This document shows positions 1,940-49,835 of a DNA stretch of 64,000 nucleotides, one piece after another; positions within the stretch are counted from its first letter, which is position 1; every line of letters begins with the position of its first letter. The DNA is from a virus. The notes beneath the pieces were generated by a model. It made no database searches. It saw nothing but the letters and a program-made list of their open reading frames with translations, and was not told the DNA's origin. The position numbers were made by a program, and so were the translations under genes. Location of the stretch: positions 1 to 64,000 of IMG/VR virus record IMGVR_UViG_3300020057_000027. One strand, 5' to 3'.

Positions 1940-3355
1940 ATGTCATTAAAAAGAAACACACTAAAAACTTTGAAGAGCATTCGCGAGAGTGCAGAATCGG
2001 ATCTTCCCACCCATGCTTCTGATGCTGGTGTAGAGATTCCTGATAGTGCTGAAAAGCGCGGAAATCGCGCAATTAAATCGGCGCTTAATGGTAAAGCAAT
2101 TGCTGATGCTTCCGGTAAAAAAGGCTCCGCTGCTGGTCGAGAGATTCCCGAAGAAGTAGAAGATGACGAGAAATTAGATGAAGGCGCAGACGAAGATCTT
2201 CCTACTCATGCTTCTGATGCCGCAGTACAAATTCCTGAGAAAAGAAAACTTCGTAAAGAAGACGATGACAAGATGGCTAAACTTAGAGCCATGAAAGAGG
2301 AAGACGAGGACAAGGAAGAACTTGACGAAGAGGAAGACGAGGACAAGAAAAAACTCGACGAAGACGAAGACAAGGAAGAACTTGACGAAGAGGAAGACGA
2401 GGACAAGATGGCTAAACTTAGAGCCATGAAAGAGTCCGATGAGTCTGACGAAGACGATCTTAAAGAGGAAGAGGACAAGGAAGAACTTGACGAAGAGGAA
2501 GACGAGGACAAGATGGCTAAACTTAGAGCCATGAAAGAGGAAGAAGAGGACAAGAAAGACGCAAAACTTTCTGAAGAAGAAGAAAAAGAACTTGAAGAAG
2601 AAGATGAAGAGGAACTTAAGAAGCACGTAGAGGCTCTTACTTCCGATGAAGATCTTCCTGAAAGTTTTAAGAAAAAGGCCGCAACAATTTTTGAGGCTGC
2701 TGTTAAAGCATCTGCAAAGAAGCGAACTGATCTTTTCCGCAAGAAACTTTCTGAAGTATACAAAAAGAAACTTAATAAAAGAAGTTCAAAAATCTCTGAG
2801 AAGTTAGTTGACAAAGTAGACGGTTATCTGGACTACGTTGTTGAAGAATGGATCAAAGAGAACGAAGTAGCGATTGAAACAGGTCTTAAAACACAGATAG
2901 TTGAAAAATTCATCGGTGGTCTAAAGAACTTGTTTGAAACTCACTACATTGAAGTGCCTGCGACTAAGACTGACGTTTTAGCTGAACAGGCCAACAAGAT
3001 TGATGGGTTAGAGAAAGAGTTAAATGAGTCTCTCAATAAAAATGTTGAGATTCGCAAAAGACTTATTTCTTTAGAAAAACAATCTGTCATTAAAAAGTTA
3101 TCTGCTGGTTTAACTGTCTCAGAGGCAGCTAAATTTTCAGAGCTTTGTGAAGGGGTATCGTTTGAAGATGCGAAAGCATTTTCTGGTAAGCTTGCTATCG
3201 TAAGAGAAACATACTTCCCAAAAACCTCTAAACGTTCAGGTGATTTAGATAGTGCGTTACTGACTGAAGGTGGACTACAAGAGCCAGAATCAAGAACATC
3301 AAAAGATGAGATTGATTTAGCTGTTGACACTATTTCGCGTATGGTGAAAAAATAA
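1940..3355 (+). CDS. gp22: Prohead core scaffold protein
   Basis: FKKKAATIFEAAV, VDGYLDYVVEEW, GLKNLFETHYIEVP motifs; directly upstream of major capsid. Confidence 0.93.
   Translation: MSLKRNTLKTLKSIRESAESDLPTHASDAGVEIPDSAEKRGNRAIKSALNGKAIADASGKKGSAAGREIPEEVEDDEKLDEGADEDLPTHASDAAVQIPEKRKLRKEDDDKMAKLRAMKEEDEDKEELDEEEDEDKKKLDEDEDKEELDEEEDEDKMAKLRAMKESDESDEDDLKEEEDKEELDEEEDEDKMAKLRAMKEEEEDKKDAKLSEEEEKELEEEDEEELKKHVEALTSDEDLPESFKKKAATIFEAAVKASAKKRTDLFRKKLSEVYKKKLNKRSSKISEKLVDKVDGYLDYVVEEWIKENEVAIETGLKTQIVEKFIGGLKNLFETHYIEVPATKTDVLAEQANKIDGLEKELNESLNKNVEIRKRLISLEKQSVIKKLSAGLTVSEAAKFSELCEGVSFEDAKAFSGKLAIVRETYFPKTSKRSGDLDSALLTEGGLQEPESRTSKDEIDLAVDTISRMVKK
2267..2560 (+). repeat. Intragenic repeats in gp22 (DKMAKLRAMKE x3, KEELDEEEDED x3)
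   Basis: Identical DNA block gacaagatggctaaacttagagccatgaaagag at 2267, 2402 and 2507. Confidence 0.9.
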
Positions 3356-3411: not shown

Positions 3412-4713
3412 ATGTATCTCTCAGAAGAACTTCAAAAGAAATGGGACAAGATTCTTAATCATAAGGATCTCCCACAAATTAAGGATTCACACCGTCGAGC
3501 AGTATGTGCAGTACTGTTAGAAAACCAAGAACGCGACATGCGTGAGCAAGGAACATTCGGGCTTAATATGCTCGCAGAAGCCGCTCCTGCTAACGCCGCA
3601 CAAGGTTTTCCTAACAACAACGCAAACTTGAAGGGTTACGATCCAGTGCTAATTTCACTGATTCGTCGATCATTGCCTAATTTGATGGCATTTGACGTGT
3701 GTGGCGTACAGCCAATGAAAGCTCCAACCGGATTGATCTTCGCATTGAAGAGCAAGTACACATCGCAAGGTGGCGTAGAAGCACTTCATAATGAAGCAGA
3801 TACAGACTTTTCTGGCGACCCTGCATCGGTGCATTCAAATCCTCTTGACCCATTTGGTCCTCCAACTCGTGGCGAAGGTCTTTCGACTTCTGCTGCTGAG
3901 CGTCTTGGTGGCGGTGGAGTCGGTGATGGTGTGTTTGCTGAAATGGCATTCTCGATTGATAAAGTTTCTGTTGAAGCTAAGACTCGTGCCCTTAAAGCAG
4001 AGTACACAATGGAAATTGCTCAAGATTTGAAAGCTGTTCATGGTTTAGATGCTGAGTCTGAACTTGCTAACATTCTTTCTGCTGAAATCTTGGCTGAAAT
4101 CAATCGTGAAATCATTCGTACAATTTACATCTCTGCTGTGCCTGGTGCCCAACAAGATGTTTCTGTTGCTGGCGAATTCGATCTAGATGTAGATTCAAAT
4201 GGACGTTGGTCTGTTGAAAAGTACAAGGGTCTGATGGTTCAGATGGAACGCGATGCTAACGCAATTGCTAAAGAAACTCGTCGTGGTCGTGGTAACTTTG
4301 TTATCTGTGACTCCGATACGGCTTCTGCTCTTAGCGTTGCTGGTCTTCTTGATTGCGGTAGCGCATTGAAAGATAACCTAAACGTTGATGACACTGGCAA
4401 CACTTTTGTTGGTGTTCTTAATGGACGTTTCAAGGTATTCGTTGACCCTTATGCTCCTCTTACACAGAATTTCTATGTAATGGGATTCAAAGGAAGCAAT
4501 CAGTACGATGCTGGATTGTTCTATTGCCCATACGTTCCGCTTCAAATGTTGCGTGCCGTTGGTCAAGATTCATTCCAACCAAAAATTGGATTCAAGACCC
4601 GTTACGGTATTGTTGCTAATCCGTTCTCAAATCTTGCTGGAAATAGCAACGGTGCGATTACTGCTGGCACAAACGTATATTATCGGAAAATTCGTGTTCG
4701 GAACCTCCTCTAG
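3412..4713 (+). CDS. gp23: Major capsid protein
   Basis: LLENQE, DPVLISLIRR, GVQPM, EMAFSIDK, YCPYVPLQM, FQPKIGFKTRYG motifs. Confidence 0.98.
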   Translation: MYLSEELQKKWDKILNHKDLPQIKDSHRRAVCAVLLENQERDMREQGTFGLNMLAEAAPANAAQGFPNNNANLKGYDPVLISLIRRSLPNLMAFDVCGVQPMKAPTGLIFALKSKYTSQGGVEALHNEADTDFSGDPASVHSNPLDPFGPPTRGEGLSTSAAERLGGGGVGDGVFAEMAFSIDKVSVEAKTRALKAEYTMEIAQDLKAVHGLDAESELANILSAEILAEINREIIRTIYISAVPGAQQDVSVAGEFDLDVDSNGRWSVEKYKGLMVQMERDANAIAKETRRGRGNFVICDSDTASALSVAGLLDCGSALKDNLNVDDTGNTFVGVLNGRFKVFVDPYAPLTQNFYVMGFKGSNQYDAGLFYCPYVPLQMLRAVGQDSFQPKIGFKTRYGIVANPFSNLAGNSNGAITAGTNVYYRKIRVRNLL

Positions 4714-35260: not shown

Positions 35261-35603
35261 AATAAAAGAAAAATATAAAATCAAATATGATCCTAATGAT
35301 AAGGCTAGATGGTTTGTTCAGCTAACAGATCTAGCTGGAGTCTTTGCTGGCGTGATGTATGGTTATGGAGCATTTAGAATTAAAGAGCCAGAAAGTCCAG
35401 ATGGTAATTTGATGTTTAGTTTTGAACGAGATATTCTATACGTACCAGAAGGCCTGAAAGGTAAAGAGTTATCAGATGATCAAGAAAAAGAATTTACTAT
35501 ATTGCTTGGCTCAATACTATATGATATACTACAAGACAACCTCAATAAAGTTTCAGAACGAGGCGATAAGCTAGTCTTGGAGTTAGAGTCTAATGATAAA
35601 TGA
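35250..35603 (+). CDS. Conserved protein at the gp40 position (possible head assembly chaperone)
   Basis: Between uvsX and gp41 as T4 gp40; G..Y.YG and LG.IL..IL pattern. Confidence 0.45.
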   Translation: MTVEIKEKYKIKYDPNDKARWFVQLTDLAGVFAGVMYGYGAFRIKEPESPDGNLMFSFERDILYVPEGLKGKELSDDQEKEFTILLGSILYDILQDNLNKVSERGDKLVLELESNDK

Positions 35604-36951
35604 TAGAGTTGAAATATTAATCATAAAGAATTTATTCTTTAATGAACCATATACAAGAGAAGTTCTTCCTTTTATAATGCCTGAATATTTTTCTGATGAA
35701 GCTGAAAGAACGCTTGTCACAAAAATAAAAACCTTTATAACTAATTTCAATCATCTTCCTACTCGTGAAGCTATTATCATTCAGGTATCTAATGATACAA
35801 AACTATCACAACCAACAGAAGATAAAATTAGAGAGATTGTTTCTAATTTAAATAATGATGAGAAAAGTGATCCTAAATTCTTAATAGAAGAATCACAAAA
35901 GTTTTGCCAACAAAAAGCATTGGTAAATGCTGTATACAGTACAGTTGATATATTAGAAGACCCTAAGAAAGAGAAAGGTATAATTCCTAAACTACTTAGT
36001 GATGCACTTGCTGTATCCTTTGATCCGAGTGTTGGTCATAGTTATCTTGATGATGCTGATGCAAGATTTGAAACTTATCATAAAACAGAAGAGAAGTTTC
36101 CATTTGACCTATCATATTTTAATAAGATTACTAGGGGTGGTGTTCCAAGAAAGACTTTAAATGTTATTCTTGCTGGAACTGCTGTAGGTAAATCACTTGC
36201 AATGTGCCATATGGCAGGCTCATATTTAATGTCGGGCAAAGATGTTCTATACATTACACTTGAAATGGCACAAGAAAGAATAGCAGAACGTATTGATGCT
36301 AATCTATTGAACGTATCAATGCAGGATCTAGCATCATTACCTAAAGATCTTTATGATAAAAAGATTGCTGCTATTAAAAGTAAAACAGTTGGTAGATTTT
36401 TCATCAAAGAATATCCTACTGCCACAGCATCCGCAACAAACTTTAGAGCATTGTTAAATGAACTTGCATTAAAGAAATCTTTTAGACCTGATGTAATCTT
36501 TGTTGATTATCTGAACATCGCAACAAGTAGCCGACTAGGTAATAATCAAACGGTAAACTCATACACATATGTAAAGAGTATAGCAGAAGAACTTAGAGGT
36601 ATGGCAGTAGAGTTTAATGTTCCAATTTGGACTGCTACACAAACTAATCGCTGTCTAACATTAGATAGTAGCATTATAACTAAAAAAGGTACATTACCTT
36701 TAGGTGATATTAAAGTGGGAGATAGTGTGTTATCTGATGTTGGTTGGAATAATGTTTTGCGTGTGTATCCAATAGAAAAACAGAAAACATATCTTATCAA
36801 AACAAAGTCAGGTAAAACTATAAAATGTTCTGCTAGACATTTATTTCCTTCTAGCGGTGGTTTATTGTCTATTGATAGTGGTCTTAAAATCGGGGATGGT
36901 CTGCAAAACAGAGATGATAAAAAAAGTAATGAAAAATGGAATGTTTTTTGA
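35593..36951 (+). CDS. gp41: Replicative helicase N-terminal part fused to split-intein IntN
   Basis: AGTAVGKS, TLEM..ERI..RID, VDYL, TATQTNR|CLTLDS... Confidence 0.95.
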   Translation: MINDRVEILIIKNLFFNEPYTREVLPFIMPEYFSDEAERTLVTKIKTFITNFNHLPTREAIIIQVSNDTKLSQPTEDKIREIVSNLNNDEKSDPKFLIEESQKFCQQKALVNAVYSTVDILEDPKKEKGIIPKLLSDALAVSFDPSVGHSYLDDADARFETYHKTEEKFPFDLSYFNKITRGGVPRKTLNVILAGTAVGKSLAMCHMAGSYLMSGKDVLYITLEMAQERIAERIDANLLNVSMQDLASLPKDLYDKKIAAIKSKTVGRFFIKEYPTATASATNFRALLNELALKKSFRPDVIFVDYLNIATSSRLGNNQTVNSYTYVKSIAEELRGMAVEFNVPIWTATQTNRCLTLDSSIITKKGTLPLGDIKVGDSVLSDVGWNNVLRVYPIEKQKTYLIKTKSGKTIKCSARHLFPSSGGLLSIDSGLKIGDGLQNRDDKKSNEKWNVF

Positions 36952-37073
36952 AAAAATGGATTTATATGTTTGATGAAATAGTAGAAATTGTTGAAATTGG
37001 ATACGAAGACGTTGTGGATATTGAAGTGTCCGGTAATAATTTATTTTATGCCAATGACATCTTAACGCATAAT
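36652..37073 (+). mobile_element. Naturally split intein (gp41-1-like): IntN 36652..36948, IntC 36966..37073
   Basis: IntN CLTLDS...IKCSARHLFP...GLKIG; IntC ...DIEVSGNNLFYANDILTHN|S in a different reading frame. Confidence 0.92.
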
Positions 37074-37445
37074 TCAGGCTTTGTATCCACTGATATTGGA
37101 TTAGAAAACACCTCCGAGAGTTTTGGTTTACCGGCCACGGCAGATTTTATGGTTGCACTTTGGACTACAGAAGAGTTAGAAAAACTTGGACAAATAGTTG
37201 TAAAACAACTCAAAAACAGGTATAATGATGTAACAACATATAAAAAGTTTGTAGTTGGAATAGATCGATCTAAGATGAGATTATTTGATCTTGATGAAAG
37301 CGCACAAAAAGGTTTACAAGATTCTGGCACAGGCGATGACAAAGACGATGATGTTCCAGCATTTGATAAATCAAAATTTGGTAATGGGATGAAAGCAGAA
37401 AATAAAGTTTATGACAAGTCTAAATTCTCCGATGTTAATTTTTAG
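36966..37445 (+). CDS. gp41: Split-intein IntC fused to helicase C-terminal part
   Basis: After HN: SGFVSTDIGLENTSESFGLPATAD, KQLKNRY, GIDRSKMRL; ATG 36966 preceded by GGA. Confidence 0.93.
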   Translation: MFDEIVEIVEIGYEDVVDIEVSGNNLFYANDILTHNSGFVSTDIGLENTSESFGLPATADFMVALWTTEELEKLGQIVVKQLKNRYNDVTTYKKFVVGIDRSKMRLFDLDESAQKGLQDSGTGDDKDDDVPAFDKSKFGNGMKAENKVYDKSKFSDVNF

Positions 37446-37983
37446 ATAACTTCTTTGCCATATATTTGTTAATATTTAATTGTCTACACGCCTCTCTAAT
37501 ACTTACATATTCTATATTGTTTATAGTAATTGGTTTTCTATTGGGTTGTAGCATTTGATTTCCTTTACTTTTGGATGATTTTTCTTTAAAAATTGTTTTT
37601 GTTTTTTTGGTATGTTTCTTTCCATAAAAGGGATTATTAATTCCTTTTCTTTGTTTACTTAATTTATCTTTCTGTTTTTGTGTCCAGCTTCTACCACAAG
37701 TTCCATCTCCACCTTCAGTTGAATTAAATCCACATTTGAATGTGTTGTATTTTTTAATATATTCTTTTTCCTTGTTTTTTGCTTCTATTTGTGTTAAACT
37801 ATCTTCTAATATGATAAAAGAAAATGAATCCCATCCATATTTGCCTATGGCATTAGATATGTGGGTATTGATGTGTTTATATGAATGTTTGTGCCAACAT
37901 TTTCTGGCTGTAGGATCTTTACTCAATCCTATATATTTACGTCCTGAAATAATATGTTCTAAACAATAGATAGACCAATTCAT
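37435..37983 (-). CDS. Free-standing GIY-YIG homing endonuclease with NUMOD3-like motif
   Basis: IYCL...KYIG, GFN.TEGGDG, NPFYGKKH. Confidence 0.9.
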   Translation of the reverse strand: MNWSIYCLEHIISGRKYIGLSKDPTARKCWHKHSYKHINTHISNAIGKYGWDSFSFIILEDSLTQIEAKNKEKEYIKKYNTFKCGFNSTEGGDGTCGRSWTQKQKDKLSKQRKGINNPFYGKKHTKKTKTIFKEKSSKSKGNQMLQPNRKPITINNIEYVSIREACRQLNINKYMAKKLSKN

Positions 37984-38866: not shown

Positions 38867-38874
38867 GATAAATA
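38867..38874 (+). promoter_or_regulatory. Putative late promoter (GATAAATA)
   Basis: Near-consensus T4 late box in the intergenic gap before ORF 38906; same variant precedes gp23 (3360). Confidence 0.55.
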
Positions 38875-38905
38875 TAATAAGGTTAATACAATGTTTGGAA
38901 TCTGA

Positions 38906-40126
38906 ATGATTACGTTTAAGAAATACATAACAGAAGCCGCAGAGGGTAAGAATACCCATCTTGAACACATAGAAGACGAAGTGTTCAATGGTGGTATTGC
39001 TGGCACACGTAAGGCGATTGCTTTCTTAATCAGTCTTAGAAAGATGTTAGCTGGACACGCTAAAAGCAAAGTCAACGTAACGGCCAAGTGGGATGGCTCT
39101 CCAGCCATTATCTGCGGAATCGCCCCTGAAAGCGGTAGGTTTTTTGTTGGTACTAAAAGTGTATTCAATAAAGACGGCAAGATCAATCACACAGTAGCAG
39201 ACATAGAAAGAAACCACACAGATCCGGTATTACGAGATAAACTTGCGATGTGTTTGCAGCATCTCCCTAAATTGGGTATTAAAGGTATTCTTCAGGGTGA
39301 TTTACTTTTCACTCAAGGTGACGTTAAAACAGTAGATATAGGCGGCGAATCACATCTAGCATTCAGACCTAATACTATCACATATACAGTACCGACCAAT
39401 AGTGAGCTAGCTAATACAATATCAGCAGCTAAACTTGGTATAGTGTTTCATACATCTTATACTGGACAAAGCATTCTCACATCCAAGGCATCGTTCGGTG
39501 TTGATTCATCAAAATTAAAATACACACCAGACGTTTGGGCTACTGATGCAACATTTAGAAACGTGTCAGGCACAGCAACATTAACTAAAGACGAAACAGA
39601 AGAAGTTACCGCCTTGTTGGTTGCCATCAAGCAACAATTTTCATCAATGGATTCTAAAGTGGTAAACTATATCGCATCAAATCTAAATCTAAGATCCCTA
39701 ATCAAAATGTATAGTAATAGTCAAATTAGAGTTGGTGTGGGTATCACAGGTAGCCAAGCATATGCAGCAGGTTTGGTGGATTTTATCGAGCAGCGATATA
39801 GAAAAGATGTGTCAACACTCAAGACGGAAAAAGGCAAAGCGGGAAAAGAACTAGTATTGAATGAACTTAAAGAACTGCTTCGTGAGCACTCAGATCAACT
39901 GATTTTAATGTTTAGTGTCGCACAACTAATTGCCGAAGCTAAGAGTTTATTAATAGCCAAACTTAAAACAGTTAAAAGTTTAGGCACGTTCTTAGAAACC
40001 CCCGATGGGTTTAAGGTGATATCCCCAGAAGGCTTTGTCGCTATCAATGCAAGTGGCTCGGCAGTCAAACTGGTTGACCGACTGGAGTTTTCTCGTAACA
40101 ACTTCAATCTAGCAAAAACGTGGTAA
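38906..40126 (+). CDS. Ligase-superfamily (RNA ligase-like) protein, putative internal head protein
   Basis: KWDG (motif I), LQGD (III), PEGFV (IV), VKLV (V); N-terminus MITFKKYITE-A. Confidence 0.6.
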   Translation: MITFKKYITEAAEGKNTHLEHIEDEVFNGGIAGTRKAIAFLISLRKMLAGHAKSKVNVTAKWDGSPAIICGIAPESGRFFVGTKSVFNKDGKINHTVADIERNHTDPVLRDKLAMCLQHLPKLGIKGILQGDLLFTQGDVKTVDIGGESHLAFRPNTITYTVPTNSELANTISAAKLGIVFHTSYTGQSILTSKASFGVDSSKLKYTPDVWATDATFRNVSGTATLTKDETEEVTALLVAIKQQFSSMDSKVVNYIASNLNLRSLIKMYSNSQIRVGVGITGSQAYAAGLVDFIEQRYRKDVSTLKTEKGKAGKELVLNELKELLREHSDQLILMFSVAQLIAEAKSLLIAKLKTVKSLGTFLETPDGFKVISPEGFVAINASGSAVKLVDRLEFSRNNFNLAKTW

Positions 40127-40127
40127 T

Positions 40128-40472
40128 ATGTACGAATATAAAGCAAAAGTATTAGAAGTAATAGACGGCGATACGATAGATGTTATTATTGATCTTGGTT
40201 TTGATGTTAAGTTCGTTTCAAGATTGCGTCTGTATGGTATTAATTGTCCAGAGAGTAGAACTAGAGACAAAGTAGAAAAAGTAAAAGGCCTAGCTGCCAA
40301 AGCAAGATTGAAAGCTCTTATACAAGATAAAGAAGTTGTAGTAAATACATTCAAAGATAAAGAAGAAAAGTTTGGTAGAATGTTAGCAAACATTACATTA
40401 GATGGTACACTTATTAATGATCAATTAATTGTTGAAGGTCACGCCGTAGCTTATTTTGGAGGCAAACGATAA
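40128..40472 (+). CDS. Thermonuclease (SNase-like)
   Basis: VIDGDT, RLYGINCPE, KFGRMLA, EGHA. Confidence 0.92.
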   Translation: MYEYKAKVLEVIDGDTIDVIIDLGFDVKFVSRLRLYGINCPESRTRDKVEKVKGLAAKARLKALIQDKEVVVNTFKDKEEKFGRMLANITLDGTLINDQLIVEGHAVAYFGGKR

Positions 40473-40903
40473 TGAAAGCATTTACACAATATCTAAAAGA
40501 AGCTTCGGGTGATAAAGTTGGTGAGCCGCATACTCCACTTAAAGGACACACAGACGAAAAGACTGCATTTGTTGTTGATGATTATCCTTACGGATTTCAT
40601 GCAAGAACACAAATTAGATATTGGGTAGAATATAAGAAAGGTAAAGGTTGGAGATTTGTAGCTCAAACACTAGACCCAAAAAGACAAAGATGGAATAAAC
40701 CTAAAGCAGAAACCTACGTAGATTTTGGTGGGTTCATGTTTAAAGATGCTAAGGGTTTTGTTGGCTTCAAAGGACTTAGTCAATATTCAGATTTAGAAGA
40801 GCAAAAGCATTGGTTGCAACATTATAGAAACTATCTTGACAGTACGGGCATAGCAGTGATAGAATATATCATAAAGCGAAAGACTGAAATGGAAGCAAAA
40901 TGA
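40472..40903 (+). CDS. Hypothetical, putative internal head protein
   Basis: N-terminus MKAFTQYLKE-A resembles the T4 capsid-targeting sequence. Confidence 0.55.
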   Translation: MKAFTQYLKEASGDKVGEPHTPLKGHTDEKTAFVVDDYPYGFHARTQIRYWVEYKKGKGWRFVAQTLDPKRQRWNKPKAETYVDFGGFMFKDAKGFVGFKGLSQYSDLEEQKHWLQHYRNYLDSTGIAVIEYIIKRKTEMEAK

Positions 40904-40945
40904 AAGCTAATCCACCCACACATACGATTAAACAATACGAATAAT

Positions 40946-41947
40946 ATGAAGACTCTTTCTGAAATACGACAAGCAAAGACTGCCGTATTTACCTTTGGTA
41001 GAATGAATCCGCCTACGGCAGGACATGAAAAACTCATTCGCAAAGTATTAGATGTTGCTCATTCTAAAGGTGCTGATCCTTTTGTGTACGTTTCTTTTAC
41101 ACAAGACCCATCAAAGAATCCATTAACAAACAAACAGAAAATTAAGTATATCAGACTTGGTGTTCCAGAAGCCGCTAAAGCAATTAAAGAAGACCCTAAA
41201 GTAAGAACACCATATCAAGCAATAACTAGATTAATTGAATTAGGTTATCAACATATTATAATGGTAGTTGGTGATGATAGAGTAAAACAATTTAGAAAAG
41301 AAATTACTCCATATGTTAATCATCCAGATAAGAAAAAATCATTTGAAATTGATAAGTTTGAAGTAGTATCAGCAGGAGAAAGAGATCCTGATGATGAGGG
41401 TGTGACAGGTATCAGTGGCACTAAGATGCGTGAAGCTGCCATTCATAACAAATATTCAAATTTTCGTCAAGGCGTTCCTTCTGGTTTAAGTGATCGTTTC
41501 TCAAGAGAAATGTTTGAGCTAGTTAAAAAAGGAATGAAGATCGCTGAATCAATACTACGAACACAAGGTAGTCTTAATATACCAAGAAATAAGATGCCTC
41601 AGATCATGCAAGATCATATTAAAGAGTTTATTAAAGAGTTAGAGAAAGAAGGTATTCCAGTTAGCATGAGAAGTGTTCCTATAAGCACGTTGAAACCTAC
41701 TCAGAAAGAAGTAAACAGCGAGAAGATTTTGAAAAAAATGGATGCATTAAGTTCAGGTGCTACTCCCAAGCCGTTCATTATATCAATAGACAATTTCGTT
41801 TTAGATGGGCATCATCAATTTTATGCTCTAAAAGAGTTAGATTCCAAGAGTAAAGTTGTAGCTTACATTGTTGGATTAAAAATGAATGAGCTATTAAAGT
41901 ATGCCCATGATTTTGATAAAGTTGGGTATAAAGAAATAGACGAATAA
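40946..41947 (+). CDS. HIGH-family nucleotidyltransferase fused to a ParB/Srx-like domain
   Basis: FGRMNPPTAGH and SGTKMRE; C-terminal LKPTQ...VLDGHH. Confidence 0.8.
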   Translation: MKTLSEIRQAKTAVFTFGRMNPPTAGHEKLIRKVLDVAHSKGADPFVYVSFTQDPSKNPLTNKQKIKYIRLGVPEAAKAIKEDPKVRTPYQAITRLIELGYQHIIMVVGDDRVKQFRKEITPYVNHPDKKKSFEIDKFEVVSAGERDPDDEGVTGISGTKMREAAIHNKYSNFRQGVPSGLSDRFSREMFELVKKGMKIAESILRTQGSLNIPRNKMPQIMQDHIKEFIKELEKEGIPVSMRSVPISTLKPTQKEVNSEKILKKMDALSSGATPKPFIISIDNFVLDGHHQFYALKELDSKSKVVAYIVGLKMNELLKYAHDFDKVGYKEIDE

Positions 41948-41958
41948 ATAGAGGTACT

Positions 41959-42504
41959 ATGAAGAAGTTTAAAGTTTATATAAAAGAATCCACTGGTGCT
42001 GTCAATCAGGTTGTTTGGCATGGTGCTGATAAAGGTTCTGCTATCATCATGGTTCCTAAACAAGATTTCAATAAAAATAGAGATCTTGCCACATTAAAAC
42101 TTTTAAAGGCCAAAGTTCCTAGAGCAAGAGCATTAACAAAATTCAAAGCAGATAGTAACTTGATTCGCCAAGCAGGCGGAGCAAACGAAGGTGAATATTA
42201 TTTGGTTCACGTAGACTTTACAACCAGAGAACTAAATGAAGCTGCCGATGAAGGTCCTCCATCATCTACTGAACTAGCTAAAGATAGACACGATAAAGAA
42301 AAAGACGATCTCAAAAGACGCCAAGATTTGGATAATGAAAAAGCTAGAGAGACAGATTTCAGAAAGAAAGAAGCAGACAGAAAACGTGAAACTCAAAAGA
42401 AAGACTCGGCCGCCCGATCTAAAAAAGTTAATGAGTATCTGGAAGATGGAACAGATGAGTTAGTATCCACATATAAGAAATATGTTCCAGGTCAGAATAA
42501 ATAA
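41959..42504 (+). CDS. Hypothetical, putative internal head protein
   Basis: MKKFKVYIKE-S; late-like box AATAAATA at 41943. Confidence 0.55.
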   Translation: MKKFKVYIKESTGAVNQVVWHGADKGSAIIMVPKQDFNKNRDLATLKLLKAKVPRARALTKFKADSNLIRQAGGANEGEYYLVHVDFTTRELNEAADEGPPSSTELAKDRHDKEKDDLKRRQDLDNEKARETDFRKKEADRKRETQKKDSAARSKKVNEYLEDGTDELVSTYKKYVPGQNK

Positions 42505-42578
42505 TCCTTGACTTTATAGATGATACATATATAATGGTACTGTAGTAATGTTTATTATTAAATGAATGGAGAATAATT

Positions 42579-42848
42579 ATGTCTAACAAAACTAAAGAAG
42601 CCGCAGCCCCAGCACCACAAGTTCAAGAACTTACTGCTGAACAGGAAATTCAAGTGCTACGACAAGCTCATGAATTTTTTGGTAATTTTAATGCTGTACC
42701 TGGCTTTGCCGCATCTAAATGGGGCCAAGCCCTTGATGCTATCGCGCTAGTAGCAAATTCACTGATTAAGAAAGCTGGACTTCTAACACCTGAAGTTTCA
42801 GAGCCATCGGAAGATGAATCTGATTCTGATGCTCAGCCTTCTGCTTAA
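42579..42848 (+). CDS. Hypothetical protein
   Basis: SD GGAG, upstream TTGACT...TATAAT. Confidence 0.65.
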   Translation: MSNKTKEAAAPAPQVQELTAEQEIQVLRQAHEFFGNFNAVPGFAASKWGQALDAIALVANSLIKKAGLLTPEVSEPSEDESDSDAQPSA

Positions 42849-42890
42849 TCCAAGCCAGTAAGCCACAAACACAACTAAATAAGGTTAGCT

Positions 42891-43050
42891 ATGCCAACCT
42901 ATGAATACGAGTGTAAGAGTTGTGGAATTTTATGTTGAAGACAGGAAAGAATGGTGTAAAGATAATAATCTTTATTATCCAACGATTAATAAAAATTGGA
43001 GAAAAAAATAAACCATATAAAGGATATTTCGGAGTTAAACAATGTCAGTA
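42891..43050 (+). pseudogene. Scar: truncated FmdB-type zinc ribbon plus homing-endonuclease C-terminal remnant
   Basis: MPTYEYECKSCG then stop; followed by KEWCKDNNLYY...KPYKG broken by a frameshift. Confidence 0.5.
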
Positions 43051-43929
43051 ATTTGCGCCAAATATTTTCAGGATGTTGGGTGGGTGTTGGCCAAAAATAG
43101 GGATCAGACATACAAGCCAACTGTAAGAATCCGTAAATCTTTTAGACGTGATATTGAGCGTCTTTATATCTGGGATGAATTCACAAAATATACTGAAGGA
43201 CTTAATGAGTTTGGAGTGGGAATCGTATCTGCTAAGATTGACTTAGAAGATTATGATTTTAAGGGTGCTAAAGATTCACAGATAGAAGATTTCAATCCAA
43301 GTAAAAGAACCTATTATTCTCCTGATGGACTTCGTATCCGTACTGCTCTATTTGAAGCTGATGTTTTAAAAGCTACAAAACGATTAATTGACTTTGAAAT
43401 TACTGGTAACACAATCATTGCAGATAAAGATAGATGTTTTGTGTTTGAAGGTGCATACATTACCAATGGTGATGAAGAAGAGAAATACGTTTATAAAGTG
43501 TTAGAAGTTCCACAAGATAAGTTTGTCGTAAGAACCAATCACGGCATCATGTTACCGTTTACTGGTTTTCAATCTGATATACCAAAACAGTCGGCAGATA
43601 GAGCAAGTTCAGAAGTAAGATATAAGACAGTCAATGAAGGCTTAAAGAAAGCTAATTCATTTCAAGAACTGCTTGAAGTCATATCAAATAAAGACGATCC
43701 TAATCCACAGGTAAATCCACTACGAATGGACGTAACTAAAGGTTCTCAAAGAACTACAGGTCAAATAATAGTGGTTCCTTCTGAGAATACATTGCACTAT
43801 AGAGCGATCTGGTGTGAAACTATGTTCGACTTAGAAACACTAAATAAAGAAGAAGAAAAGACCTTTTTTGAAATAGTGTCTACTCGTAAATTAATAAGTT
43901 TTAAAGAAAAGCTCAAAGGAGAAGAGTAA
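43042..43929 (+). CDS. Ntn-hydrolase-like protein
   Basis: N-terminal M-S-VI..., AKNRD, EGLNEFG, RTNH, SS..R. Confidence 0.7.
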   Translation: MSVICAKYFQDVGWVLAKNRDQTYKPTVRIRKSFRRDIERLYIWDEFTKYTEGLNEFGVGIVSAKIDLEDYDFKGAKDSQIEDFNPSKRTYYSPDGLRIRTALFEADVLKATKRLIDFEITGNTIIADKDRCFVFEGAYITNGDEEEKYVYKVLEVPQDKFVVRTNHGIMLPFTGFQSDIPKQSADRASSEVRYKTVNEGLKKANSFQELLEVISNKDDPNPQVNPLRMDVTKGSQRTTGQIIVVPSENTLHYRAIWCETMFDLETLNKEEEKTFFEIVSTRKLISFKEKLKGEE

Positions 43930-43930
43930 A

Positions 43931-44995
43931 ATGTTTAAGAATCTTCCAAAAGACTTGATTGATGCCGCCTCAGGTATCATGAAAGAAAGTTCTAACAATC
44001 GTTCAAAGTCATATCGTAAGCTTGTTAAGGAAGCTCTTAAAGCTTTTAAAGTAAAATCAATCACACAGTTAAGCGAATCAGAACAACATCTTTTTGCTAC
44101 TTGGGTAGCCAATCGTTTAGATGAAGCTTGTGGTTGTGGTTACTCAGAAGAAAGTGATGACGAATTGCTACACAAGAAAGCTGCCGTAGATGCTCAGTCA
44201 GGACTTCCCGAATTAGGCGAAGAAGACGAAAAAGAATTAGACGAAGAGGAAGACGAAGAAGATAAGTTAGAAGAATCCGATGATTCTGATGAAGACGATC
44301 TTAAAGAAGAAGACGAAGAAGATAAACTTGAAGAAGAGGAAGATGATGAAAGAATTGATGGCCCTGCCTCGGCCAAGAAAAATGCTCCACTTCCTGGTGC
44401 TGCTCTTAGTTCATTAACCGCTGGCGATGATAGCGATGAATTAAAAGACAAAGATGAACTAGAGGAAGAAGAGGAAGATAAAGATCTAAACGAATCATTC
44501 AAAGTTGGTGATGTTGTTTATGTTAAAACTGGTCCACTAAAAAACTATCCGCATAAAATTATATACGACAACAAAAACGGATCATATAATGTTGTAGCTC
44601 CTGGAGCTCCGAACAGATTAAATTACCGCCAAGGCGCTGCATCTGCTAAAGCTTCTGAGTTATCAAGTAAACTAATCAAAGAAGATTATTGTTCTCCTGA
44701 ACCTCTTGCGGCCATCGGTGCAAGATCTGGATTAGAAAACCCAAAACACGTTGACATTATTAAAGATATTGATGTTGTGTCTGGTATTAATACTTATAGA
44801 CTATTAATTAATTATGTAAATGGCCGCCCAGAGATTATACCTTCTGTAGATCTTCCTGGAGCTCCTTCGGTTGAAGCATTAGCTGATCTTGTTTCTGGTT
44901 TTGAAGATGTTGATGGTGTAATTAGTCAGGCGATAGCCGACGCACTTGATGTGCCTTCTGAAAGACCAGTTTACAGAGGCAATGATAAAACTTAA
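43931..44995 (+). CDS. Acidic repeat protein, putative prohead core/internal protein
   Basis: Many L.E motifs; shares ESD.SDEDDLKEE and ELDEEEDE with gp22. Confidence 0.6.
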   Translation: MFKNLPKDLIDAASGIMKESSNNRSKSYRKLVKEALKAFKVKSITQLSESEQHLFATWVANRLDEACGCGYSEESDDELLHKKAAVDAQSGLPELGEEDEKELDEEEDEEDKLEESDDSDEDDLKEEDEEDKLEEEEDDERIDGPASAKKNAPLPGAALSSLTAGDDSDELKDKDELEEEEEDKDLNESFKVGDVVYVKTGPLKNYPHKIIYDNKNGSYNVVAPGAPNRLNYRQGAASAKASELSSKLIKEDYCSPEPLAAIGARSGLENPKHVDIIKDIDVVSGINTYRLLINYVNGRPEIIPSVDLPGAPSVEALADLVSGFEDVDGVISQAIADALDVPSERPVYRGNDKT

Positions 44996-45007
44996 ACCCT
45001 GGCTCTA

Positions 45008-45562
45008 ATGAAAAGTTTAAAAGACTTTATTGTAGGTAAAGAACTTCCTGCCATATATCTTGATATGGACGAGACAATAGTAGATTGGTATCAAGGGGCC
45101 GACGCCGCGCTAGAAAAGTTTGGTTATCCAAAATGGACACATGAATTTTGGAAACAGTATACTAATGACGGAGCAGATGCAATCAGATGGGCGGTTCTTA
45201 ATAAGATACCACATTTTTGGATTAACCTTAAATGGATGAAAGACGGTAAGAAACTCTGGGAGTTTGTTAAACCATATAAACCCAATATTTTGAGCGCATA
45301 TTCAGATTATTCTCCTACAAGCATTCCAGAGAAGCAACAATGGATAGCAAAGAATCTTGGACTAAATAACCTTAGCAATGTTCATTTTGTTGGTCGTAAA
45401 GATAAGAAGAAATATGCGGTAGCCGCAAACGGTAATCCTAATCTTTTGATTGACGATTATGATAAAAATTGTAATGAATTTAGAAGTAGTGGTGGCATAG
45501 CAATTCAAGTCACCAATGTTTCGGAAGTTATAAGTAAATTAAAAAGTCTTGGATTTAAATAG
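45008..45562 (+). CDS. HAD-family 5'(3')-nucleotidase
   Basis: YLDMDETIVD, LSA, K..W, LIDD...N...F...GG. Confidence 0.88.
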   Translation: MKSLKDFIVGKELPAIYLDMDETIVDWYQGADAALEKFGYPKWTHEFWKQYTNDGADAIRWAVLNKIPHFWINLKWMKDGKKLWEFVKPYKPNILSAYSDYSPTSIPEKQQWIAKNLGLNNLSNVHFVGRKDKKKYAVAANGNPNLLIDDYDKNCNEFRSSGGIAIQVTNVSEVISKLKSLGFK

Positions 45563-45573
45563 GAGAAAACAAC

Positions 45574-46056
45574 ATGTCACTTTGGACTAACGATACACCC
45601 CCAACATTTCAAAACCCTAAATCTGGCCCTGCCGTTGCAACGGCCGCTGGTTGGGTTGACCCTAATACTGGAGAAGTTCTAGTAGCTATTAGCAATCTAA
45701 CAACAAAAGCCGGTGCTGCCGATGTATTAACCACACGTTTTGAAAATGGTTCATATATACAAGGACAAGCACTTAAGGTGTTTGTACACTACAACGAAAA
45801 AGTTGATGTGGTTGTCGGAGCAACAATAGAAGCTTCATGGTCGGGTCCTTTTGGTAACGTAACGCTTACTGCCCCAGCACAAATTGGAACATATGATGTT
45901 CGGTTTGATGGTGTTGTTCCTTCAGAAGCAGGAACACTTTCAGTTGCCGCACAAACTCTTTTAGGTACTGTGACTGATAATCTAGGTGGCGCTCCATCTA
46001 ACGTTAGTATTTCAAGTGTTGCCGGAGCCGCTGCAGGAACACGTCCAGTAGCGTAA
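45574..46056 (+). CDS. Putative structural (Ig-like) protein
   Basis: Strong SD; AGWV...EVLVAI motif, V.YNE.V.V, Ala/Gly/Thr-rich. Confidence 0.5.
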   Translation: MSLWTNDTPPTFQNPKSGPAVATAAGWVDPNTGEVLVAISNLTTKAGAADVLTTRFENGSYIQGQALKVFVHYNEKVDVVVGATIEASWSGPFGNVTLTAPAQIGTYDVRFDGVVPSEAGTLSVAAQTLLGTVTDNLGGAPSNVSISSVAGAAAGTRPVA

Positions 46057-46069
46057 CGACAGAATTATT

Positions 46070-46483
46070 ATGTTGAGTATGATGAGCAAAATCAACTACG
46101 AACGGTTGACGGATGAAAACTTCTTGATGTATGCTATGCAGAACTATGAGAATCCTCAGTGCGTAAGTATTGATGACTTTCACGATGATCTGTTAAGGAT
46201 AAAATATCTCAAGAGACTCCTCAACCGTTATAAAGAAACGGGAGAATTAAAAGATCAATTGATTCTTAATCATATGATCGTTCTTTATAATGTATTTGGT
46301 GTTGAAGCCTGTACAAGAATGTTATTCTTCAAAATTGATTCTCATCTTTGGTCTTATCTTAAGACCTTTTTAGTTTATAAACATTATATGCCAGATAGAG
46401 TCTATGGTATAAATGGTAAAACAATTTTAGACACTGATATTCCACTAGACGCAGGAATAATTAAAGCTCTGAGAGAAATCTAA
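46070..46483 (+). CDS. Conserved T4-like hypothetical protein
   Basis: YA...Y.NP.C....F..DL.RIKYLKRL, LILNH.I.LYNVFG. Confidence 0.7.
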   Translation: MLSMMSKINYERLTDENFLMYAMQNYENPQCVSIDDFHDDLLRIKYLKRLLNRYKETGELKDQLILNHMIVLYNVFGVEACTRMLFFKIDSHLWSYLKTFLVYKHYMPDRVYGINGKTILDTDIPLDAGIIKALREI

Positions 46484-47019
46484 TGAGTACACCAAAACGA
46501 ACATTGCTAACTGAAGGTGCCGTAGATTTTCTAGTTCTATATTCCTTTCTTAAAAAATTAACAACTCCATTTACAGAATGGGAAGCCTTCAAACTTGGCA
46601 TCATAGATGAAGATGGTAAAGTTCTCCGCAAGCGAGCAACACTAACAGAACCAAAAGAAAAAGGCGCATTTACTTTGTTTGATATTCTAGTATTGAATAT
46701 TAAAAAAATCATTGAAAGATTACCAAACGGCAAAAGCAAGCTGGCAACATTCATAGCTGGATTATTCTTAATGAAAGAAGAAAGAAACCACGAACTATGT
46801 TTGAATGAAGATATTGCATATGAATCATTCATGGACTTCTATGATATAGTTCTTTCAGATCCAGAACTTAAAAAACAAGTTGAATTGTTAATGAAGAAAG
46901 AAATAGAAGAAGACGCCGCAGCAAATTCCGTTGGTGGAGGTGGTGTAGCCGGTTTAACCGTTGCCACAGGTGGTCCAGTCATAAGAAACCGCAAGAAATT
47001 CAAGAGTTATTCTAAGTAG
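46483..47019 (+). CDS. Conserved T4-like hypothetical protein
   Basis: LTTPF..W.AFKLGIIDEDG; C-terminal EDAAANSVG. Confidence 0.7.
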   Translation: MSTPKRTLLTEGAVDFLVLYSFLKKLTTPFTEWEAFKLGIIDEDGKVLRKRATLTEPKEKGAFTLFDILVLNIKKIIERLPNGKSKLATFIAGLFLMKEERNHELCLNEDIAYESFMDFYDIVLSDPELKKQVELLMKKEIEEDAAANSVGGGGVAGLTVATGGPVIRNRKKFKSYSK

Positions 47020-47121
47020 TTACAAGCTCCAAAATATATCAAATACCCTATTGTCAAGGTGATATAGATATGTTATAATAAGATTATAGAGTTTAATCTA
47101 TGCTTGGAGATAAATATTATT

Positions 47122-47439
47122 ATGAGTAACGAAAAAGATTTTTTTGATAAGTTTGGTTTAGAGGTTGTATCTGGCGATATTGAAGTCGGACAAACATACC
47201 CAATCTACGGAATGATTACCAAGATAATTGATGATAGGGTTGGTTCAGTTGTAGTAGAAATAAATTATAACATTCAAGCCAACTTACAGATACCAGATGA
47301 AGAAAAAATTCAACTCATTAAAGAACGTGCTTTTGAGCCGGGAATCTTTGTTAGTACGGTTACTTCAAAAGATCCGAAAGTTATTGTGGAGGTCGTAACC
47401 GTTGTCTTCGGTAGAAAACAAACAAGTCAAGTACAATAA
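47122..47439 (+). CDS. Hypothetical protein
   Basis: ORF with upstream TTGTCA-17-TATAAT and GGAG. Confidence 0.7.
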   Translation: MSNEKDFFDKFGLEVVSGDIEVGQTYPIYGMITKIIDDRVGSVVVEINYNIQANLQIPDEEKIQLIKERAFEPGIFVSTVTSKDPKVIVEVVTVVFGRKQTSQVQ

Positions 47440-47828: not shown

Positions 47829-49268
47829 ATGAATAAACTAATAACCTGTTGTCTTATTTTGTGTTGCTGTTGTAGTACAGCATATGCAACAAATAAAGAC
47901 AAATGTAAAGACAAATGTAAATCCCAAGGTAAAGACGTAGCTCATATCTGTAGTAATGCAGATCTTGATCGGGGCAAAGTAAATGTATGTCACGTACCTC
48001 CAGGATGTCCTAAAAATGAACATACAATTTGTGTATCGCAAAATGCGGTAGATAATGATGGTGTTGGTCACTTTCCTGGACAACACGGTGGAGATTATTT
48101 TGGTGTTTGTGAATCAGACCAAGGAAATCCTACACCAACTCCGACTGCTACACCTACAGCGACTCCGAGTTGTACTCCAACTCCTAGACCGAGTGCGAGC
48201 CCGACTCCAAACCCAAGTGTAAGTCCAACCCCTGAAGGTAGTCCAACTCCTCAGCCGAGTTCTACTCCAACTCCTGAACCAAGTGCGAGTCCAACTCCTC
48301 AGCCGAGTTCTACTCCAACTCCTCAGCCGAGTGCGAGTCCAACTCCTTCTGAAAAGGTTAAGATTTGTCACTTGACTGGTGAATCAGATCCTCGCGCAAT
48401 TAATATTGAAGTTGCGCTAGAAGCTCTCCCAGCACACATTCAGCACGGCGATCATCAAGGCGCTTGTGTGTTTGACTGTGCCGGTGCTCCATTCGGTGAA
48501 GCTACGGTAGATGCTTGTGGTATCTGCGGCGGCGATGGTTCAGCATGTAAAGGTTGTGATGGTACTGCAAACAGTGGTAAGAAACTAGACGATTGTGGAG
48601 TGTGTGGTGGACAAAACAACACATGTCTTGATTGTGCTGGTGTACCAAACGGTGGCAAGAAAACAGATAGTTGTGGTATGTGTGGTGGCGATGGTACATC
48701 ATGTGTAGATTGTTCTGGTATACCTAATGGTCCAAATAAACCCGACTCGTGTGGTGTTTGTTCTGGTTCAAATAGTTGTCTTGATTGTTCTGGAATTCCT
48801 AATGGTGGTACACTTGTAGATAAGTGTGGTACTTGTGGTGGTTCTGGTGGTGAAGTTACTAAGATTAGGATTGATAAGAAAAAGCTTATCAAGCTTGCTC
48901 ATACTTTACTTCTCAAGAAAACTATTCCTTACTTTAATGGTGCGGTAAAATGTAATAAAGCATTTACTAAACTTGCTGGTAAGGGTACTACTTCTGCAAA
49001 AGCTACACATAAAGCAATCGTAGAAGCTATTACTAAACTTAAGACTGAAGTGTTACTATGTCCTGGAGAATGTGAACGAGATATCAACAAAGAATTGTTG
49101 AAGCTTATTAGTTCTCTTGCAAAGACACAATACAAGTATGCTGCTCAAGCTCAACACGCTGGGCGCGCTGCATGTAAGAATGATGGTCCTGGACTTGCTC
49201 TAACCAAGCCAATTGAAAACAATATTCATACTATTGTTAATAATTGTCCAACACATGTGTGTAAGTAA
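47829..49268 (+). CDS. Secreted cysteine-rich protein with Pro/Thr/Ser linker and DxCGxCGG repeats
   Basis: Signal peptide-like N-terminus, two K...CH...H..D..G.C modules, (S/T)PTPxP repeats, DC.G.PNG...D.CG.CGG repeats. Confidence 0.85.
48130..48350 (+). repeat. Degenerate 24-bp coding repeats (SPTPQPS)
   Basis: ccaactcctcagccgagt-type units recur. Confidence 0.8.
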
Positions 49269-49281
49269 GTTGAAATAAACT

Positions 49282-49316
49282 AAGGGCGGGGTAGAAATAT
49301 CCCGCCCTTTCTTTTT
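49282..49316 (+). terminator. Rho-independent terminator
   Basis: aagggcggg...cccgccctt stem plus T run. Confidence 0.85.
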
Positions 49317-49328
49317 GGGATATACATT

Positions 49329-49835
49329 ATGAAAATGACAGTGATGCTTATTGCTACTATTGGATCTTTAATTTACCCTCAAGATATTCAGATGAATCCA
49401 ATGCCAAAATATATTATACCACAACATAAAGAAACTTTAGCTGAACAGATAATTAGAATTTCATTAAAGTATCAGATAAATCCTAAACTAATTTTTTCAA
49501 TAATTCAACAAGAAAGCAAATTCAATTCACTAGCAATATCAAAAAAAGGCGCTGTAGGTTTAATGCAGTTGATGCCAAAAACTGCTAAGTGGTTAAAAGT
49601 TGACCGCCATCATCCAGAACAAAATCTTGATGGTGGTATTAGATATCTTGCCATGCAATTACGTAAATATAAATCAGTAAAGCTTGCATTGGCCGCTTAC
49701 AATGCAGGTCCAGGAAATGTTGATAAATACAATAAGACAATACCTCCGTTTAAACAAACAGAGGTTTATATAAAAAATATTTGTTCGGTGTACCAAAGAT
49801 GCGAGCATTTTTCATCTTCAATAATCTCAGGGTAG
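49329..49835 (+). CDS. Lytic transglycosylase (SLT domain)
   Basis: QES, GAVGLMQLMP, ALAAYNAG. Confidence 0.95.
   Translation: MKMTVMLIATIGSLIYPQDIQMNPMPKYIIPQHKETLAEQIIRISLKYQINPKLIFSIIQQESKFNSLAISKKGAVGLMQLMPKTAKWLKVDRHHPEQNLDGGIRYLAMQLRKYKSVKLALAAYNAGPGNVDKYNKTIPPFKQTEVYIKNICSVYQRCEHFSSSIISG

Follow-up and report, generated by a model that had tools for sequence, protein, structure and literature searches.

Leaders resembling the T4 capsid-targeting sequence on predicted enzyme cargo of an uncultured marine T4-like phage

The window analyzed in this work is the stretch of 64,000 nucleotides that opens the 164,106-bp virus record IMGVR_UViG_3300020057_000027, which has a terminal repeat of 106 bp and belongs to an uncultured, marine, T4-like myovirus. 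In a block of genes bounded by the gp41-type helicase (35593-37445) and the gp61 primase (53058-54065, 36% identical to gp61 of phage S-SM1), several open reading frames (ORFs) begin with a shared leader of about ten residues, which probably acts as a T4-type capsid-targeting sequence (CTS), i.e. a signal for loading into the head and for processing by a gp21-type protease. The observations behind this reading are the motif itself and its strict N-terminal position, the modular character of the leader, a head machinery of the T4 type in the same genome, and leader-bearing orthologues that have been detected in the virions of cultured relatives. The initial annotation of this DNA had proposed T4-type capsid targeting for these N-termini, as part of a virion-packaged kit of enzymes, and the targeting proposal is borne out by these observations together with the agreement with the positions mapped in T4 and the retrieval of the T4 genes ipII and ipIII by a pattern written from the leader. 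The T4 CTS and the enzymes detected in cyanophage virions were already known; in the literature that was searched no link between the T4 CTS and proteins of cyanophages or other marine T4-like phages was found.

In T4, the CTS is the decapeptide MKTYQEFIAE with which IPII and IPIII begin (Mullaney and Black 1996, via PMC9026906 and PMC8442874), and suppressor studies have assigned residues 4 and 7 to targeting and residues 8 and 10 to processing (PMC9026906). We searched for the strict form of the leader with the regular expression M-x-x-[FLYIM]-x-x-[YF]-[IL]-x-E placed at Met1, and the chance rate was taken from internal positions of the proteins. The motif heads 5 of the 229 ORFs of the genome, against 0.074 expected, which represents an enrichment of about 70-fold. 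Three of these ORFs are in the block (38906, 40472 and 41959; genes are named by their first coordinate) and show the full form M-x-x-F-x-x-Y-[I/L]-x-E; the other two, 71484 and 73301 in genome coordinates, are outside the window. When every ATG followed by 40 open codons was considered in the six frames of the whole genome, no further strict match was obtained. All the ORFs named in the initial annotation are present, each starting with the first ATG that follows a stop codon, and the shared N-terminal pattern described there for several of them is confirmed. For two of its examples, 45008 and 40946, the leaders are related to the others but depart from the strict form: that of 45008 is a 12-residue variant that keeps L4, F7 and I8, has its Glu at position 12 and lacks a clean [IL]-x-E, and that of 40946 is, according to the family alignment, homologous but four residues shorter, with Gln where the relatives have the cleavage Glu. 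Outside the window, 72789 carries a variant longer by one residue. The leader and the leader-bearing genes of the block are the following.

38906..40126, plus strand: protein of the DUF6267 family, predicted cargo (PF19782, E 8e-115)
38906..38935, plus strand: ten-codon leader of the capsid-targeting type of the DUF6267 protein (strict motif)
40472..40903, plus strand: basic leader-bearing protein of a family with a D-D-Y-P-Y-G core, predicted cargo (strict motif)
40946..41947, plus strand: HIGH-type nucleotidyltransferase with a ParB/Srx-like C-terminal part (Pfam, PHROG)
41959..42504, plus strand: basic leader-bearing protein whose C-terminal half is highly charged, isoelectric point (pI) 9.4, predicted cargo (strict motif)
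45008..45562, plus strand: HAD 5'(3')-deoxyribonucleotidase-like phosphatase with a looser leader, possible cargo (PHROG 2643, E 1.8e-19)

The positions conserved in these leaders (4, 7, 8 and 10) are the four functional positions mapped in T4. As in IPII and IPIII, the element occupies about ten residues right after Met1, with Lys2, an aromatic residue at 4 and 7, Ile or Leu at 8 and Glu at 10, and it is found on unrelated and mostly basic proteins; the pI of five of the six leader-bearing proteins of this phage is between 9.1 and 9.7, so that they are basic like the T4 internal proteins. The codons of the leader are varied, so that its conservation lies at the amino-acid level, and a comparison of the leader-coding DNA of seven genes did not reveal a common nucleotide cassette; it thus gives no evidence for recent recombinational shuffling.

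The leader was also analyzed in 80 related IMG/VR loci, found with the DUF6267 protein (38-48% identity), in which 126 of the 1,088 ORFs begin with it. After removal of duplicates, the motif follows Met1 directly in 63 of 850 ORFs versus 0.14 expected (about 450-fold), and the internal matches are limited to 33 in 203,042 positions, 17 of them inside the first 12 residues, which look like shifted start calls. A residue count of the relatives' N-termini that made no use of the motif showed F4 enriched 3.5-fold, Y/F7 about 2-fold and E10 2.3-fold, with L/I8 enriched too. In these loci the leader heads at least ten families that have no other similarity to each other, and the proteins that bear it reach about 1,100 residues. 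In the DUF6267, nucleotidyltransferase and 40472 families, the leaderless members have their start precisely where the conservation of the domain begins; the presence or absence of the leader at a domain boundary in three families indicates that it is a modular N-terminal extension. For the 40472 family, the three closest homologues have the leader and 16 more distant ones do not; the DUF6267 protein of S-SM1 (T4-GC71) is leaderless.

We also wrote a degenerate DNA pattern of 30 nucleotides from the leader and searched whole genome records with it, using the reversed pattern as a control. In T4 it gave three matches, which are ipII, ipIII and gene 61.1; in this phage three (40472, 41959 and 71484), in S-SM1 one (T4-GC190), in Syn9 one (gp184), and in S-SCSM1 two (ORF91 and ORF30). 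The reversed pattern gave no match in six genomes, including these five. Gene 61.1 of T4 (NC_000866, 18966-19130) begins with a CTS-like leader and is located between genes 41 and 61, like the block described here, but its product is a tiny hypothetical protein of 54 residues without an enzyme domain. ORF30 of S-SCSM1 (NC_070962, 44215-44535) encodes a hypothetical protein of 106 residues and lies among tail-fibre genes. The similarity of the N-termini could in principle be due to chance or be a by-product of an AT-rich composition, given that the genome has 32-40% G+C and codons for Lys, Phe, Tyr and Ile are common; the enrichments in this genome and in the relatives, and the lack of matches to the reversed pattern, make this explanation extremely improbable.

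The genome also encodes the proteins with which a CTS would have to work.

1940..3355, plus strand: gp22-type head scaffolding core protein (Pfam T4_CASP, E 3.5e-59; PHROG head scaffolding protein)
3412..4713, plus strand: gp23-type major capsid protein (Pfam Gp23, E 3.8e-132)
155893-156558 (genome coordinates): Peptidase_S77 (gp21-type) prohead protease (Pfam E 2e-37)

Compared with the capsid proteins of Stenotrophomonas phage DLP6, Methylophilales phage Melnitz, Pelagibacter phage HTVC008M and cyanomyoviruses, that of this phage shows 57-59% identity. Its propeptide is predicted to be cut after residue 56, between Glu and Ala of the sequence L-A-E-A, just ahead of the Pfam Gp23 domain, a site of the type that also ends the leaders ([IL]-x-E). 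As in T4, therefore, an S77 protease and a gp22-type scaffold occur in the same genome as the leader. By analogy, during prohead assembly the leader would dock the protein onto the core formed by the gp22-type scaffold, its presumed partner, through the aromatic or hydrophobic residues 4 and 7, Ile/Leu8 and Glu10; once the shell has closed, the gp21-type protease would cleave behind the Glu, its target being the [I/L]-x-E motif that it would also recognise in the capsid protein; and the mature protein would be retained in the head alongside the DNA and would enter the host together with it. We infer docking, cleavage and ejection for the products of 38906, 40472 and 41959, probably for that of 45008, and outside the window for those of 71484 and 73301. 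The T4 internal proteins are embedded in the packaged DNA (PMC3012670). The predicted cargo differs from them in that it consists mostly of enzymes of 140-400 residues, whereas the T4 proteins are small and of the inhibitor type, in that its genes lie between gp41 and gp61, and in that its loading, cleavage and ejection are predictions.

Published virion proteomes of cultured relatives provide the evidence closest to the particle itself. According to Table S8 of Sullivan et al. 2010 (PMC3037559), the cytidylyltransferase T4-GC190 was present in purified virions of S-SM1 with 25 peptide counts, and the same table lists T4-GC1453, 1454, 1455, 425 and 426. As judged from the S-SM1 record, these six proteins are all encoded in its gp41-gp61 block; the homologous block of S-SM1, Syn9 and Melnitz has the same two flanking genes as that of this phage. 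GC190 begins with a full leader and is 43% identical to 40946, and GC1455 begins with a nine-residue variant that ends in L-Q-E. In S-SCSM1, the virion-detected NMNAT-like ORF91 (PMC9602691) starts at 88819, exactly at the match to the leader pattern, and a cytidylyltransferase (ORF154) is included in the virion table of S-CREM2 (PMC10665884). The enzyme family of 40946 is hence represented in at least three independent virion proteomes. The proteins GC190 and ORF91 share with 40946 the family and the gp41-gp61 location, and both have the leader at their start; unlike them, 40946 has a degenerate leader, and the source papers name no loading signal and leave contamination open. The frequency of the motif, its presence on proteins detected in virions of cultured relatives and the integrity of the active-site motifs had been chosen beforehand as the points that could overturn the proposal, and all of them turned out in its favour.

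Several points weigh against capsid targeting. This phage is known from sequence alone, and the function of its leader is read from its genes. The block sits among replication genes and contains sigma-70-like promoters, and in the relatives an ATAAATA box occurs within 60 nt of 16% of the leader-bearing genes versus 8% of the others (p = 0.02), a modest difference. The Glu is missing from the leader of 40946, and a clean [IL]-x-E from that of 45008; the product of 71484 is not basic; and cargo of 400 residues or more is far larger than IPI-III of T4. GC190 was undetected in the virion studies of S-PM2 and Syn9, two of the three early proteomes, and the published detections could be carry-over of abundant proteins: the S-CREM2 authors state that such enzymes recur in cyanophage particles and that carry-over is not excludable. 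It could be proposed from these facts that the N-terminus is some other signal (a translation start or mRNA feature, a docking peptide of the replisome type, or a stability tag) and that the virion detections are contamination. The position of the genes between those of a helicase and a primase, the carry-over raised by the proteome authors, the absence of GC190 from two early proteomes and the modest enrichment of late boxes speak for this explanation; we nevertheless regard it as unlikely, since the conservation is seen in amino acids with varied codons and falls exactly on the T4 targeting and cleavage positions, the pattern retrieves the T4 internal protein genes themselves, the leader ends in [IL]-x-E before Ala like the cut site of the capsid protein, and the enzyme family recurs in independent virion proteomes. 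Capsid targeting thus remains the probable function of the leader.

The first of the predicted cargo proteins in the block is that encoded by 38906. In its AlphaFold2 model (pLDDT 81), residues 1-18 have a pLDDT below 50 and are outside the fold, and the Pfam domain begins at residue 16. Residues that correspond to motif I (K61-x-D63-G64), motif IV (E375-G376) and motif V (K388) of ligases are invariant in 27 DUF6267 sequences, and a helical insert of 130 residues lies between the early motifs and motifs IV and V. In an exhaustive structural alignment against 48,161 chains the top eight matches are all RNA ligases (Z 6.3-7.7): the Naegleria nick-sealing ligase and trypanosome REL1 (5cot and 1xdn, Z 7.7), T4 Rnl2 (7.0), Trl1 (6.8) and T4 Rnl1 (6.3), with 176-199 residues aligned; DNA ligases come next, with Z 5-6. 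Foldseek with the same model returned nothing at E <= 0.001, the DUF6267 profile had no match among the PDB sequences, and no similarity to Rnl1 or Rnl2 could be detected at the sequence level. The matches agree on the family and the motifs fit, even if the Z values are middling, and we model DUF6267 as a ligase-like covalent nucleotidyltransferase, closest to the RNA ligases.

The second enzyme, 40946, had been described as a fusion of a HIGH nucleotidyltransferase with ParB. The first part of this description stands, with 21.9 bits for Pfam CTP_transf_like (PF01467; cut-off 21) and a PHROG cytidyltransferase match of E 1e-59, but the C-terminal part reaches 20.2 bits for ParBc_2, below the cut-off of 23.6, although a D-G-H-H motif is present. 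In the family alignment G26, H27, S157 and R162, which belong to the motifs (T/H)-x-G-H and I-S-x-x-x-x-R, are invariant. An I-A-E site followed by Ser is found after residue 201, at the domain junction; all long forms of this nucleotidyltransferase have an [I/L]-x-E right after the enzyme domain (here 41534-41548, residues ~197-201), and the short forms stop there, which suggests that the prohead protease may also cut between the domains of the long forms. The HAD-like protein 45008 has the D-x-D-x-T motif as D19-M-D-E-T23 and no Pfam match at E 0.01. For 40472, the model (pLDDT 80) gave no fold match (best Z 3.5), and 41959 has no Pfam or PHROG match. Outside the window, 71484 encodes a pol-beta-type nucleotidyltransferase with a leader; its domain occurs elsewhere among viral proteins in fusions with HIGH nucleotidyltransferase, PAP2 phosphatase and AAA_33/Zeta kinase domains, which gives it a resemblance to multi-domain RNA repair enzymes. 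PDB sequence searches with 71484 and 40946 gave nothing useful. The region 71484-73951 of the genome is a second small cluster of leader genes, directly upstream of a tRNA island, that holds 71484, 72789 and 73301.

The cargo could be loaded and yet work within the head, in DNA condensation, charge balance or assembly, its enzyme folds being incidental or serving the packaged DNA. Most leader-bearing proteins are basic like the DNA-embedded T4 internal proteins, and in 41959 a long charged tail goes with the lack of any recognisable fold, which agrees with such a role. In contrast, the catalytic motifs of the ligase-like protein (K-x-D-G, E-G and K) and of the HIGH nucleotidyltransferase are invariant across relatives, which argues that enzyme activity is under selection, and the likely substrates (ATP, RNA ends and nucleotides) would be unavailable in a filled capsid; a role confined to the head is therefore quite unlikely.

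What the members of the cargo have in common, in our reading, is an action on the ends of nucleic acids and on nucleotides, of the kind seen in RNA repair. Tentatively, the cargo may be a pre-made set for handling RNA ends or nucleotides that acts at the start of infection. The relatives carry the leader also on a class II CCA-adding enzyme, an AAA_33 kinase, a HAD phosphatase similar to that of polynucleotide kinase (PNK) and a P-loop family. A wider proposal, which we consider rather doubtful, is that marine T4-like phages (cyanophages and phages like the pelagiphages and methylophilales phages) inject a ready-made, leader-addressed RNA-end repair set; it would comprise DUF6267, the HIGH-type and pol-beta-type nucleotidyltransferases and HAD phosphatases, to which the relatives would add the CCA-adding enzyme and the PNK-like kinase. 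The set would then mend tRNA or mRNA cut by host defences before the phage genes are expressed. The initial annotation had suggested anticodon nucleases and NAD- or nucleotide-based defences as possible targets, and an anti-defence role of the cargo may be envisaged. In this genome as a whole, no AAA_33 kinase above the cut-off, no recognisable polynucleotide kinase and no CCA-adding enzyme of the PolyA_pol type were found, and a complete version of the kit for end healing and sealing that had been envisaged in the initial annotation could consequently not be assembled from it; the end-healing part is incomplete in this phage.

It is also possible, at much the same tentative level, that the injected proteins act on the incoming phage DNA, protecting or processing its ends, or on pools of nicotinamide adenine dinucleotide (NAD) or nucleotides, and not on RNA. 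The authors of the virion studies annotate the nucleotidyltransferase as NMNAT-like and propose a role in NAD metabolism; gp2 is absent from most cyanomyoviruses (PMC2984593); the block includes a ParB/Srx-like part, a deoxyribonucleotidase-like HAD enzyme and an SNase; DNA ligases are also found among the fold matches of DUF6267; and a polynucleotide kinase and a CCA-adding enzyme are lacking here. RNA is favoured instead by the best fold matches of DUF6267, by the enzymes that carry the leader in the relatives and by the domain fusions of 71484.

Two systems of T4 can be compared with a set of injected RNA-end enzymes. The repair pair Pnkp and Rnl1 of T4 acts on tRNA, is made after infection and is not packaged. 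Its chemistry (AAA_33-type kinase, HAD phosphatase and K-x-D-G ligase) is that found on leaders here and in the relatives; unlike the T4 pair, this genome lacks the kinase, and DUF6267 has its helical insert. Alt of T4 is a large ADP-ribosyltransferase with N- and C-terminal propeptides that travels in the head, is cleaved by the prohead protease and is delivered with the DNA. It has in common with the cargo predicted here that it is a packaged enzyme processed by gp21 (PMC9026906, in part), but it has no homologue in cyanomyoviruses.

The remaining genes of the block that are of interest here have no leader.

40128..40472, plus strand: SNase-type nuclease (Pfam SNase, 46.5 bits)
43042..43929, plus strand: possible Ntn hydrolase, as a lead only
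43931..44995, plus strand: very acidic protein, pI 4.3
45574..46056, plus strand: homologue of T4-GC425 of S-SM1, an 'S-layer domain' protein that is virion-detected according to the S-SM1 virion table (BLASTP 34% identity, E 6e-12)

The identification of the SNase made in the initial annotation is correct, but it has no leader and is not predicted as cargo. The list of enzymes given there is supported for the ligase motifs of DUF6267 and, through PHROG, for the HAD enzyme, but does not extend to the SNase, 43042 and 43931, which are leaderless. For 43042, a weak lead comes from the ESM Atlas, in which neighbour clusters contain PF03417 in 10-16% of their members, and the protein has a Cys at position 5; it has no match in Pfam, PHROG or PDB. 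The protein 43931 had been taken for a gp22-like protein; it is indeed acidic, but we rejected the assignment given that BLASTP against the phage's own gp22 (1940-3355) gave E 0.39 and there was no Pfam match.

The promoter-like elements of the block are of two kinds.

38868..38874, plus strand: ATAAATA late-type box, 31 nt before the start of 38906
41944..41950, plus strand: ATAAATA box, 8 nt before the start of 41959
40836..40865, plus strand: sigma-70-like promoter match (11/12), upstream of 40946, a consensus match only
42508..42535, plus strand: sigma-70-like promoter match (TTGACT, 16 nt, TATAAT), before 42579

The two ATAAATA boxes had been pointed out in the initial annotation and are present. 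In this genome the scaffold, capsid, sheath and tube genes have such a box 20-45 nt upstream, and a late-type box also precedes 73301. The distance of only 8 nt at 41959 would give a nearly leaderless late mRNA. An ATAAATA 5-8 nt before the ATG is found for four genes (41944-41961 and 47110-47124 in the window; 73288-73303 and 155710-155724 in the genome), for which leaderless or nearly leaderless late mRNAs would be expected from the sequence, and a spacing of 6 nt between ATAAATA and ATG recurs in the relatives. Matches to sigma-70-like promoters are no commoner in the block than in shuffled sequence, with three of them reaching 11/12; those before 40946 and 42579 suggest that the block is made of separate transcription units, and not of the single late cluster that had been proposed. 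PMC7238727, consulted for the temporal expression class, does not list the orthologues of the genes of the block.

Around the block, the gp41-type helicase is encoded by two overlapping ORFs (35593-36951 and 36936-37445) on either side of an apparent intein remnant, and a GIY-YIG/NUMOD3 homing endonuclease gene adjoins it on the minus strand (37435-37983); the portal protein gp20 of this phage is also interrupted by an intein. The region 47829-49835 includes a gene for a 479-residue protein whose start resembles a signal peptide and which contains numerous cysteines and a long Pro/Thr/Ser repeat, and then an SLT lytic transglycosylase.

The presence of the leader on NMNAT-like and cytidylyltransferase enzymes offers a mechanism for their repeated detection in virions, whose origin had been doubtful (PMC9602691, PMC10665884); kinases have also been found in purified cyanophage particles, and their authors left undecided whether they are cargo or contamination (PMC9602691, PMC10665884). 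Given that the leader is short, strictly N-terminal and easily scanned, the set of proteins injected by abundant ocean phages would be predictable from genomes and metagenomes and, if this reading is true, the sequence of a phage would suffice by itself to tell which proteins it injects. The enzymatic nature of the predicted cargo (ligase-like protein, nucleotidyltransferases and phosphatases) points, for these phages, to a hitherto undescribed step of counter-defence or host conditioning in the first minutes of infection.

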